A stretch of DNA of 64,000 nt from Cladosporium halotolerans (lineage: Eukaryota), in contig NW_027191488.1 of the NCBI RefSeq assembly GCF_011745625.1, forward strand, positions 62,001 through 126,000, read 5' to 3'. The translations under genes were made by a program, and so were the position numbers. Numbering within the stretch: position 1 is the stretch's first letter; every line of letters begins with the position of its first letter. This document shows, piece by piece, positions 59,399 through 62,995 of this stretch. The notes under the pieces were generated by a model. That model was not told where the DNA came from. It saw only the letters and a list, made by a program, of their open reading frames with translations, and did not search any database.

Positions 59399-60283
59399 AT
59401 GGGAAGAGGGAAGAGGGTGGAGTAGATGTATATATGAGATCAAGAATGTATAAACGACGATCGCATCGAAGTTGTCCCGTTCATCCACTGGATAATTGTA
59501 TGGAGATGCGGCCCTGCGAGGTGGCACACGGCCGTCAACGTCACAAGAGTGTGGTCGGTGTGAAGCTGTCATGGAGAAGGAATCAAGACGATTCACTGCA
59601 TCCATGTCGGAGATTCAGATTGTGAGCTGAATCAGCAATCGTGTATGTCTCGCACCAACAGGCTGAATGCTCCTGCACGGTACAGCCACAGGTACCTCGC
59701 CAACACCTGTGCCTGTCCACGTGCATAGCTGGTGGCGATAGACTTCCGGGCACGACCGGGAGGCGGGGATGGAGGTCCAGTCGATCGGGTCCAGCCGCGA
59801 TGCCATGTGCGGTGCGTGGGTGGTGCGATGACGATCGCGCGGGGCAGGGCTACATAGGCGCGCGCGAGAGAGCATCAGCAAGGGTCGTGTCAATAAAGCT
59901 GCCCACCAAGATCGGCGCGTTAAGCGAGGCGTTGGTGTTGGGCCAGAATGATCACAATTGCGTCGTTGCTGGAGGCCCATAAGCGACGGCTCTCGCTGTG
60001 TGCATGTGACGAGCTGAATGCACCGGCACGCCACAGCGCTGCACGCAATCCGTCGCCAGAGGCTGAGGCCTGCCAGCAGAGCTTAACCCGCGCCAACACA
60101 GCCCACAGCCCACCCTCGACCTCAGCCTGCAGCCGCTGTCCTTGTCGAGTCTTGTCCCGTCTTTGCCTTGTCCTGCCCTGTCCGTCTGGTATCTTCTTCA
60201 CTCACGACACTCCAAACGTGCACCCCAACCAGCACCCGTACCGTGATGCCAGCTTTGGCCTTTACCTCACCTGAGTCTCCCAC

Positions 60284-62203
60284 ATGTCGGTTGTGGGCGA
60301 AGTAGTGGGCGTCATTGTCAGTAGACTCCCTTCAGCTCTGCCCCACCTACGCCTCGACCGCGAAGCCTCGCTCTCAGAATCCATATACCTCCTCTTGACA
60401 ACAGCTAATCTGTCACCCAGGCCTGCGTCGCCGCCGTCGTTTCCGCTTATCGCGATGGTGGGCATATCATTCAGAAAATTAAAGTCAAGCGCGCGCAGAA
60501 ACGCGCCGCACCACCCTCGCGCCTCCTCGAGGAATCAATCGACCAGGCGCCGGAGGACATCGAGCGCGAGAAGCAGCGAGGCATCTCGCGCTTCGGCAAG
60601 GCTTTCGAAGCTGGGGACACCATCGCCGTTATCGCGCTGCAGCAAATCACTATCCAGCTGCAAGGAAGCTTGCTCGAGGAGCTACGCAATGCTGCCTTCG
60701 ACGATGCCTTCACGGACTTCAGACACCTCGTAGACGTCGCTGACGCCGGGCGAGACAAGTCTATGAACACGCTGATCGAGCTGCGCCAGCGTTTACTTAC
60801 TGCCGAGCCGATTCACGATCTTGAGCTGTCCCCGACCTCCTCGCACGCCACTGCGAGATCGGACTCCTTCACTCAACAGCAGCGAAGAGCTCTGCCCGCT
60901 TCATCATCCTCAACAGCCGATCTGAGGCCGACCCCAGCATGGGCACAAGCTAATCACGCCGCTTCTCGCGACGCGTCAGGAGAAGAAGACGCCGCATCGG
61001 GCGCCGAGAACTTGCCTCGACAGCCAACTAAGCGTGGCAGTTTCCTTCACTTTTTACGCCACGCGAGGACGAACAGCAGCCATGGGGAGCGGTCTGGAGT
61101 GCAGACGCCTGCTGTTGTTGTGGAAGAAGGCGTGAAAGAATCGCCTCAGCCGGAATCGCCTGTCAATGGCCCGACGCGGAATGCCACGGTCACCAGTGAT
61201 GCGAGGTCGTCGGTCAGTGCGGGCTCGAGCCATTCGACTGTACCGAGCACGACTTTCAGATACCAGCCTTGGGAGGGTGAGTCAATTTATCTGAAATCAA
61301 CGATTGAGAACAAGATCCTGACCATTTCACAGTGCGTATGAAGCGAACGTGAGATACGTGACCGCCGTGCTGATCGCTCTTTTGTAGGATGACCCAGCTA
61401 AAATCTGGGGAACAAAAAACACAGCAGAGTCGCCGGAGATGGTAGCAGCAGACCCCATGTCCAACTCGCCCCCACCCGTCCAGCGTACTTCGTCTGGCCC
61501 AGCTATGCTTCGTAACTCTTCCGTGATGGTGCCGACTCCCACGCCAGACAACCACTACCTTGGCTTTTGCAAAAATGCCGTTCGCCTCCAAAATGGCGAC
61601 AGAGGAGCCTTTGAAAAACACAATGAGCATGCTTACTCTCGGTCCGGCTACTCCTCAGTCACCATCCAGTACCTGGCCTGCAGATCCGCCAAGTGCAGCT
61701 TCATGGGGCAGCTCAAAGCGGACAAGATCTGGGAGCGAGTTTGGAAGGACGAGCCTCTTGGCCTGAAATGGCGCTGGGCGTTCCTTGCCAAGTCGCACGT
61801 TCAGCAGAAGCAGGTGAAAGGCCAGCAATTTGCGTACCAATGCATCTTCTGCACCTTCGCAACCGGTAAGGGCGCCGTATATCACAGCACGAGAATGTAC
61901 ATGGAGCATGTTGCCACTCATCGTGGCGAGATGAGCGAGGTGCTCAAGTACAAGACTGGGTGCCTGAACGATCGCATGTGCAATGACGAGGAGGAGTTCG
62001 ACATTAATCTCTTCCCGCTCGACGGTCAAGAGAACCGCGATCGTCAAGCTTCGCAGTGCCTCTCGGATGATCTCCAGGGGTTGGCGATCTTTCCCCCCAA
62101 ACCGAAGCCTGCGGACTCAATGTTCGGCGCCAACGAGCCTTGGAACGAGGGCCTGTCCAACTTCCATTACCGCAGTGACTTGGACCCGACCGAGCTCGAA
62201 TGA
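60284..62203 (+). CDS. Uncharacterised protein (567 aa): N-terminal helical HeLo/4HB-like region, disordered linker, Cys/His-rich C-terminal domain
   Basis: Exons 60284-60316, 60421-61275 and 61388-62203. Intron 60317-60420 (GTCAGT..GCTAAT..CAG) and a complex intron 61276-61387. C-terminal GFCK..C..KC..WAFLAKSHV..CIFC..EHVATH. Confidence 0.8.
61276..61387 (+). other. Spliceosomal twin intron (stwintron), [D1,2] with alternative [A2,3] route
   Basis: G|GTGAGT..CCTGAC..CAG|TGCGT..GCTGAT..TAG. Removing 61277-61332 creates donor GTGCGT. Only removal of 112 nt in total restores the reading frame. Confidence 0.85.
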
Positions 62204-62254
62204 AGCGCCGCTTTCGCGGTCTGCCTTCAGCCCCGCAGCACTTTTCCCGACGCT

Positions 62255-62995
62255 TCAGCCGCGCCAGATGCGCACAATGACAAGCTTTTCCCACCCAGCC
62301 TTCTTTCCACTAGACCCAACAGTCTCCGCGCACCATCCAGCCGGCCACGCACGAATGCGCTCTTTGACCGCTTCCGGCTTATTCTGCGCACAAAGCAGCA
62401 CATACGCCACGCCCCGCGCGCTCAGCACGCCCGGCAACCGCTCCAGCAACCGATCCGTCGTTTCCATCCCATCCTCGCCACCCGCATACGAAAGCTCAAG
62501 CAACTTCGAGTCCCGCTCAAACACCTCCGGCGACGCCATGGCCTCCGCGTCCAGCGGCGCCGGCAGCGTCTCCGTCGGCACGTACGGCGGGTTGAACACC
62601 AGAACATCCACTTCTCCATCTTTGACGCACGACGTCAAATCCCCCTCCACTACATCCAGGAACGCCGCCCGCGGCTCAGCCTGCTCCGCCACCGCGCCCC
62701 GCACTGTCTGCGCCGCTGCTCTCGCGGCAAGCGCATTCACATCCGTGCCGAGGAAGGCGACGTCCGCGCGGCCGAAGATCGTCTGCGCGTTCGCGGCCGC
62801 GAAGGCGAGGACGACGCCGGAGCCGACGCCGACTTCGAGGACGAGGGGGCTGGGCGTTGAGGGGGAGGGGAAGTGGGAGGCGAGGAAGGCGGTTTCGCTG
62901 GCGGAGGAGAGCGTGTCGAGGAGCAGGTAGGAGTCTTCGGCGGGCTCGTAGATGGCGTCGAAGGAGACGTGGGTTGTTGAGGGGGTTGGGAGCAT
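62255..62995 (-). CDS. MTQ2: eRF1 glutamine methyltransferase, HemK2/N6AMT1 family
   Basis: MLPTPST, IYEPAEDSYLLLDTL, LEVGVGSG, VFNPPYVPT, SYAGGEDG, WEKLVIVRI. Confidence 0.93.
   Translation of the reverse strand: MLPTPSTTHVSFDAIYEPAEDSYLLLDTLSSASETAFLASHFPSPSTPSPLVLEVGVGSGVVLAFAAANAQTIFGRADVAFLGTDVNALAARAAAQTVRGAVAEQAEPRAAFLDVVEGDLTSCVKDGEVDVLVFNPPYVPTETLPAPLDAEAMASPEVFERDSKLLELSYAGGEDGMETTDRLLERLPGVLSARGVAYVLLCAQNKPEAVKERIRAWPAGWCAETVGSSGKKAGWEKLVIVRIWRG

Follow-up and report, generated by a model that had tools for sequence, protein, structure and literature searches.

Evidence for a conserved spliceosomal twin intron in a gene of unassigned family from Cladosporium halotolerans

We examined a 112-nucleotide (nt) interruption of a protein-coding gene located in a 64,000-nt stretch of DNA from Cladosporium halotolerans (contig NW_027191488.1, positions 62,001 to 126,000 of the forward strand; hereafter the window, numbered from its first letter). 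The host gene lies on the + strand, begins with ATG at 60284, and ends with the stop codon TGA at 62201-62203. Several lines of evidence strongly support the interpretation that the 112 nt between its second and third exons constitute a spliceosomal twin intron (stwintron) that is spliced out in two successive U2 reactions. That the 112 nt are lost in full, with the codons GAG|GAT joined, is close to certain, and from this end product and the signals within the interruption we infer the two-step removal. The upstream open reading frame (ORF; 60409-61341) and the downstream ORF (61388-62203) are in frames offset by +1, and therefore the 112 nt must be removed. A stwintron at this place had been proposed in an initial annotation made from the letters alone, and the features named there were all recovered at their positions.

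The interruption comprises, in order, the codons TGG GAG (61270-61275), a lone G (61276), two 56-nt U2 units, and then GAT GAC CCA from 61388 onward. The 5' unit (61277..61332, + strand) begins with the donor GTGAGT, carries the branch element CCTGAC at 61317-61322, and terminates in CAG at 61330-61332. The 3' unit (61332..61387, + strand) begins with the donor GTGCGT, formed by G and TGCGT (61333-61337), carries the branch element GCTGAT at 61369-61374, and terminates in TAG at 61385-61387. The two units share G61332, which is the last base of the 5' unit and the first base of the 3' unit, and G61388 is both the first base of exon 3 and an alternative acceptor G. The GC content of the 5' unit is 37.5% and that of the 3' unit 53%, as compared to 55-60% in the flanking exons.

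This arrangement can be read in two ways. In the [D1,2] reading, the internal intron is 61277-61332 and the external intron consists of G61276 and 61333-61387, such that the lone G opens the split external donor and is removed. In the [A2,3] reading, the internal intron is 61332-61387 and the external intron consists of 61277-61331 and G61388, such that the lone G is retained as the first base of the Asp codon. All four introns of the two readings are 56 nt in length. A [D1,2] stwintron is defined by a complete U2 intron positioned between G1 and U2 of the external donor, which is the organization found here, with a hybrid donor GTGCGT and a separate branch element for each unit; the [A2,3] type calls for a G directly 3' of the last acceptor, with CA+G rebuilding the acceptor of the 5' unit, and G61388 occupies that position. 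By the [D1,2] route, 61277-61332 would be excised first and G61276 would be joined to TGCGT, generating the donor GTGCGT of a second 56-nt intron that ends with TAG at 61387. By the [A2,3] route, 61332-61387 would be excised first and CA together with G61388 would rebuild the acceptor of the 5' intron. The two routes are formally equivalent and would yield an identical messenger RNA (mRNA; ..TGG GAG|GAT GAC..), as the initial annotation had deduced from the geometry. This deduction agrees with published accounts of overlapping [D1,2]/[A2,3] stwintrons, for which both routes are described as open provided that the 3' acceptor is followed by a G (PMC5587772, PMC9024468). Conservation of G61276 and G61388 does not discriminate between the routes, since both bases are needed under either.

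To date, the junction has been observed in contigs from public sequencing runs. Briefly, four runs (X1-X4) of the 24 listed were compared over positions 60250-62350, with assembled contigs only; these drop rare forms and consequently can show the presence but not the absence of a form. That the runs are RNA is a guess, since none of the 24 is on record as RNA. Two of the four runs compared, which derive from two different studies, yielded a contig that skips exactly 112 nt: record 3 of X2 (829 nt, with 691 and 138 nt on either side of the joint) and record 5 of X3 (1568 nt, with 742 and 826 nt on either side). The mature junction TGGGAG-GATGAC that had been predicted from the sequence, with 112 nt removed, is thus present in both. 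The joint leads from 61273 to 61386 and can slide over three places owing to AGG on both sides, with GAG|GAT as the product. The skipped piece is accordingly 61274-61385, 61275-61386, 61276-61387, or 61277-61388, with the boundary pairs AG..GT, GG..TA, GG..AG, and GT..GG, respectively. Because GT..AG is not found at any of these positions, a single GT..AG cut cannot yield the observed junction, and because no single GT..AG excision restores the reading frame at that junction, two consecutive canonical reactions are required.

The same organization is present at related loci. A search with a family profile returned 43 metagenome loci, among which 17 had both motifs flanking the junction and the other 26 were partial or too distant. 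Ten of the 17 informative loci carried a stwintron (L002-L010 and L012, with L009 and L010 identical at this place), one carried a single canonical intron (L011), and six had no intervening sequence. The ten stwintron loci, with 49-72% identity, all had 112-121 nt between the Glu and Asp codons and all presented the same order of elements, namely G, a GTRAGY donor, a CTRAY branch element, CAG, T..GY, an ACTRAC branch element, YAG, and then G. The first donor was GTGAGT, GTAAGT, GTGAGC, or GTAAGC and followed a G in 10/10 loci, and the internal CTRAY element was positioned 6-7 nt before CAG. After the internal CAG came T and then ATGT, GTGT, TTGT, TCGT, or ACGC, with T..G kept in all ten; the second branch element was ACTAAC or ACTGAC at 8-9 nt before TAG or CAG, and exon 3 started with GAT or GAC in every case. 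All ten match search model A for [D1,2] stwintrons (PMC9024468) and four of the ten match the stricter 2017 pattern (PMC5587772). In a DNA alignment of the stwintrons, mean column identity was 57%. The invariant or near-invariant columns were located within the flanking exon ends and the splicing signals, i.e., both donors, both branch elements, and both acceptors, with the internal CAG-T..G and the terminal AG among them.

These observations bear on the alternative that best survives, namely that the 112 nt are a one-step, non-canonical intron with the ends GG..AG (61276-61387) or GT..GG (61277-61388). Both boundary pairs are permitted by the three-nt slide, and the contigs record an end product only. 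We nevertheless consider this alternative improbable, since it calls for non-canonical boundaries, and since the perfect GT..AG pair located 1 nt away, which would remove 111 nt, was not seen in X2 or X3. Moreover, the internal branch element, the CAG, and the T..GY remainder are conserved in 10/10 relatives even though one-step excision has no need of them. The alignment thus shows retention of signals that only two-step removal requires, within an intron that has otherwise diverged, and this is the main argument by which one-step excision is disfavored relative to two consecutive reactions.

A second alternative is that the contigs without the 112 nt represent DNA of strains that have lost the sequence. 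Such a loss is compatible with a run type that was only guessed, and one related locus from within the stwintron clade (L001; discussed below) also has no sequence at this place and may be either cDNA (complementary DNA) or genomic. However, X2 also skips intron 1 at its exact GT..AG ends (60316 to 60421, 104 nt), as does X4, and X2 represents the host gene in short pieces of 270-1110 nt. The exact removal of intron 1 serves as an internal control that marks X2 and X4 as spliced RNA. Furthermore, both introns are retained in X1, a run that bears the organism label of X2 and has most variant positions in common with it. These observations make loss at the DNA level very unlikely as an explanation of the junction. 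The X1 sequence is a single 3313-nt contig that follows the window without gaps across both introns and differs from it by 35 substitutions. It represents the unspliced form in a close strain and speaks against an assembly indel in the window, which the initial annotation had named as a way in which the stwintron could prove illusory. Within the 112 nt, X1 departs from the window only at 61374 (T>C), such that the second branch element reads GCTGAC instead of GCTGAT. Outside of the 112 nt, the DNA-like X1 contig has 61270 T>C, which changes the conserved Trp codon to Arg; X2 and X3 keep T. X4 has no contig over 61219-61483 and hence carries no information on the junction.

The initial annotation had also argued that simple models fail, and this held for the models that it listed but was incomplete. 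Its frame arguments are correct; for example, use of the distal sites in one step (61277-61387, 111 nt) leaves an extra G and gives GAG GGA TGA, with an immediate stop. However, when we enumerated single GT/GC..AG introns of >=40 nt with donors at 61100-61344 and acceptors at 61300-61559, 123 were found to join both ORFs without a stop, among which two have good signals, and both of these in-frame introns had been overlooked. The first (61336-61387; 52 nt, GTATGA..TAG) leaves 61277-61335 as coding sequence and adds 20 codons, and the second (61277-61397; 121 nt, GTGAGT..CAG) swaps DDP for A. A stwintron thus does not follow from the reading frame by itself, and RNA and relatives are needed; it is the RNA contigs and the homologs, rather than the frame, that exclude these two introns. 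An ordinary single U2 intron does not account for the data, since no GT/GC..AG boundaries reproduce the observed junction and the canonical in-frame options take out 52 or 121 nt.

Conservation of the protein across the junction distinguishes among these models. Out of 1.84 billion representatives, 420 were related to the exon-3 ORF at E<=0.001. From the 150 relatives listed, the 17 whose matches open within query residues 1-7, i.e., at the beginning of exon 3 or close to it, were aligned with the translations of three models. The aligned homologs show the junction consensus [FW]xYQxWE followed by DDP/DNPxxIWG, with WE directly followed by DDP or DNP in 8/17, and only the 112-nt model of the three reproduces ..YQPWE-DDPAKIWG... 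The sister of the window in our dataset (P0151, 69% identity) reads WEDDPAKIWG without interruption.

The model in which the ordinary 52-nt intron 61336-61387 is real and 61277-61335 encodes 20 extra residues (GESIYLK..SQC) has the merits of an in-frame junction without a stop, a usable donor, branch element, and acceptor, and an upstream ORF that stays open to 61341, and it is the probable choice of a gene predictor. It is highly unlikely as the prevailing form, given that X2 and X3 remove 112 nt, that none of the 17 aligned homologs has a residue in the 20 columns opened by this model, and that the GC content of the supposed coding stretch (37.5%) is below that of the exons (55-60%); a minor isoform of this kind may go unseen in contigs. 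The single 121-nt intron 61277-61397 (GTGAGT..CCCAG), which predicts ..WE-A-KIWG.., is in frame and has canonical ends, but its probability is negligible, since the 112-nt skip in the contigs ends no later than 61389, and since this intron would remove the conserved DDP and bypass the AG that comes first downstream of the branch element. A microexon model, in which 61277-61332 and 61336-61387 (108 nt in total) are removed, runs into a stop and is rejected by the 112-nt skip.

Several observations weigh against a stwintron removed in two steps. No splicing intermediate has been seen; the X2 and X3 contigs contained no intermediate, no 111-nt product, and no retained intron, although contigs cannot show absence, and two-step removal is deduced from the lack of a canonical one-step solution together with the conserved internal signals. 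The runs are only guessed to be RNA, and the X3 contig starts at 60532, short of intron 1, such that its RNA nature is indicated only by the 112-nt skip itself and by a contig end 8 nt past the stop. The co-occurrence of motifs is not by itself rare: a relaxed [D1,2] pattern has one match in the window, at 61276, where 0.38 are expected per shuffled window (100 shuffles, both strands). In addition, the window fails the strict 2017 pattern at two degenerate positions (the internal branch element CCTGAC and the second donor GTGCGT) and departs from model A in a single base, the C that opens the internal branch element. With that position relaxed the window matches model A, and with relaxed branch elements model A has no other match within the 64 kb. 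The published search motifs (the 2017 pattern and the 2022 model A) are heuristics rather than a definition of the [D1,2] stwintron. The motifs alone are thus not beyond chance, and the weight of the evidence lies in their position between conserved exons, the RNA junction, and the orthologs.

Relatives that do not carry the stwintron provide insight into its possible history. The initial annotation had anticipated either a stwintron or a single phase-0 intron in orthologs. The former was found at ten loci, as described above, and a single canonical intron was found at one, L011, in phase 1 and not in phase 0. The intron of L011, a locus with 54% identity, is 59 nt in length (L011:1282-1341), has the signals GTGAGA..GCTAAC..CTCTAG, and follows the first base of the Asp codon (GAA G|..|AT GAT), one base downstream of the phase-0 site; because intron 1 is also present, L011 is genomic. 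The intron occupies the site of the [A2,3] external intron, which is the 3' position of the published one-nucleotide shift scheme (PMC5587772). A canonical phase-0 intron, which the 2017 scheme also predicts among relatives, was not identified at the junction in the 17 informative loci.

The six loci with no sequence between the two codons were L001, L013, L014, L016, L018, and L027. Those other than L001 (L013, L014, L016/L027, and L018) show 35-49% identity over the whole model protein. L016/L027 carry intron 1, exons 1 and 2 of L014 are well apart, and L013 is on a 16-kb contig, and for these reasons the intron-less L013, L014, and L016/L027 are probably genomic. A tree of the exon-3 protein was reconstructed from 30 rows, leaving out L017 and L019-L043 (partial or distant) and L027 (a duplicate of L016). 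The window, P0151, L001-L010, and a trio comprising L011 and the pair L012 and P0001 formed one clade of 15 rows (support 97/92), with the intron-less L013-L016 and L018 outside of it. Stwintrons occur on both sides of the basal split of this clade. A single gain with reduction in L011 and two gains from an L011-like intron entail an equal number of changes; a second independent origin of the identical architecture seems the less likely of these. L001 (a 1680-nt contig; L001:220-264) is nested within the stwintron clade beside L007, and WE is directly followed by DDP. It has 82-87% DNA identity to L003 and L007 and breaks from both exactly at the junction. L001 may represent cDNA, or else the stwintron as a whole may have been lost precisely from its genome.

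One possibility, which we put forward tentatively and regard as less likely than not when taken as a whole, is that this is an old stwintron that predates the split of lineages now 49% identical in this domain, that it is spliced by both routes, and that its relatives preserve three stages (no intron, the phase-1 intron of L011, and the stwintron) of the intron-shift pathway proposed in 2017. If so, L011 would either retain the ancestral intron, into the acceptor of which a second intron was inserted, or have lost the [A2,3] internal intron at the DNA level, and the host gene family would be a second natural system for tracing the origin and decay of stwintrons.

Among known stwintrons, one close counterpart is the stwintron in a DHA1 antiporter gene of Trichoderma reesei (Fekete et al., 2017; PMC5587772), which likewise has a one-G overlap, a G before and a G after, and the same mRNA by either route, and whose orthologs likewise include genes with the stwintron and genes with a canonical intron 1 nt apart. 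Both routes have been demonstrated in T. reesei, with a balance that differed between data sets (PMC5587772). The T. reesei stwintron consists of units of 66 and 88 nt, and its two intermediates have been cloned (PMC5587772), whereas the units described here are 56 and 56 nt and the contigs show the end product. In addition, the gene described here has no assigned family and belongs to the Dothideomycetes, as judged from its nearest named homologs, and only the 3'-position canonical variant of the T. reesei scheme was found (L011), with no 5'-position variant. According to the same account (PMC5587772), a stwintron in the alternative oxidase gene of Helminthosporium solani, also a Dothideomycete, has the same dual-route [D1,2]/[A2,3] geometry and is alternatively spliced, but the gene differs and the order probably differs as well.

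In Hypoxylaceae alone, more than 1500 [D1,2] stwintrons are reported (PMC9024468). Those that are unique, found in Hypoxylon sp. CO27-5 and other members of the family (Fekete et al., 2022; PMC9024468), resemble that of the window in being unrelated in sequence to others and conserved in position among relatives. They also resemble it in fitting model A (10/10 relatives, and the window with one relaxed position) and in that one-step use of the distal sites results in a +1 frameshift; mis-splicing at distal sites with a frameshift has been reported for Hypoxylon stwintrons (PMC9024468). Those are from Sordariomycetes and have an underlying sequence symmetry (PMC9024468), whereas here we detected no terminal inverted repeat and no unusual fold. 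The sister stwintrons of Xylariales, which have near-terminal inverted repeats (PMC12403724), share the [D1,2] nesting but are multi-copy, similar in sequence, lineage-specific, and equipped with complementary near-terminal 10-mers. In contrast, the stwintron described here appears to be old, is the sole pattern match in the 64-kb window, and has no such repeats. Specifically, the minimum free energy of the 112 nt (-21.4 kcal/mol, z +0.98) was equaled or bettered by 168/200 shuffles, and an inverted repeat linking the two ends of the 112 nt was sought and none was found. Since there is neither an unusual fold nor an inverted repeat that links the ends, this is probably not a symmetrical multi-copy sister stwintron.

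A further point of comparison is provided by long introns of animals, where splicing is recursive at ratchet points and a first reaction regenerates the 5' splice site for a second. Removal of the present stwintron would likewise involve consecutive spliceosomal reactions with a regenerated 5' splice site. However, in animals the site is built from the end of the exon, there is no interrupted motif, and the introns are very long, whereas here minimal fungal introns are offset by 1 nt.

The host gene comprises three exons. Exon 1 (60284..60316, + strand) contains the ATG and 11 codons and encodes a hydrophobic N-terminus; its junction with exon 2 is borne out by the X2 and X4 contigs. Intron 1 (60317..60420, + strand) is an ordinary 104-nt GT..AG intron (GTCAGT .. 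GCTAAT .. CAG). Exon 2 (60421..61275, + strand) ends in TGG GAG, encoding the end of the conserved ..YQPWE, and was delimited by the ORF and the alignment of homologs. Exon 3 (61388..62203, + strand) starts with GAT GAC CCA (DDPAKIWG..) and was delimited by the ORF, the X2 and X3 contigs, and homologs that align from residue 1. Under the 112-nt model the protein has 567 amino acids. Its N-terminus is hydrophobic, and it further comprises a conserved segment that appears helical, a long linker rich in Ser and Pro, and a C-terminal domain in which the invariant residues are Cys and His and include a C..C...H...H spacing. Pfam returned no family for either exon, with a zinc-finger match below threshold (E 0.21) as the sole hit. 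A protein atlas suggested zf-C2H2_AcuF with a score of 0.76, below the 0.9 mark and hence a lead only, and otherwise contained only ‘hypothetical protein’ clusters of Ascomycota. All relatives of the host protein that bear names are from ascomycetes; the named homologs are hypothetical proteins of Friedmanniomyces, Teratosphaeria, Meristemomyces, Acidomyces, Zymoseptoria, and Hortaea (43-46% identity). Among longer proteins, a search recovered no full-length copy of the host protein (best 69%) and returned the neighbor's own protein; similar-length proteins were outside of this search. We found no mention of the host gene family in the parts examined of four stwintron papers (PMC5587772, PMC9024468, PMC5639578, and PMC12403724).

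A convergent neighbor gene (window 62258-62995, - strand) encodes the eRF1 glutamine methyltransferase MTQ2 (PF05175), with its stop about 50 nt from that of the host gene and its nearest named relatives (Cladosporium, Friedmanniomyces, Cryoendolithus) at 68-69%. Homologs of both genes in Meristemomyces frigidus have the consecutive locus tags LTR08_004580 and LTR08_004581, and the pair therefore appears to be syntenic across Dothideomycetes. Between the convergent genes (window 62182-62275), several short, overlapping X3 and X4 contigs with differing variants were observed, including a 1-nt deletion at 62244; these may reflect mixed strains or overlapping 3' ends.

Collectively, our findings identify a real stwintron of described [D1,2]/[A2,3] geometry in a Dothideomycete gene. 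The class, the exact dual geometry, and the evolutionary reading are already in print, and the concept is unchanged. Stwintrons show that short fungal introns are recognized one by one, i.e., by intron definition. Automatic annotation of [D1,2] stwintrons is reported to be always incorrect (Fekete et al., 2017; PMC5587772), and for the present gene the probable outcome of prediction is the addition of 20 false residues, the loss of three conserved residues, or two separate genes. The present case adds a transcript-supported and deeply conserved example from outside of Xylariales and Aspergillus, from which most examples in the literature consulted are drawn. The interest of the finding is moderate and stems from the depth of conservation and from the L011 variant; the eleven related loci with an intron at this site, ten with a stwintron and one with a single canonical intron, provide material for the study of the origin and decay of nested introns.

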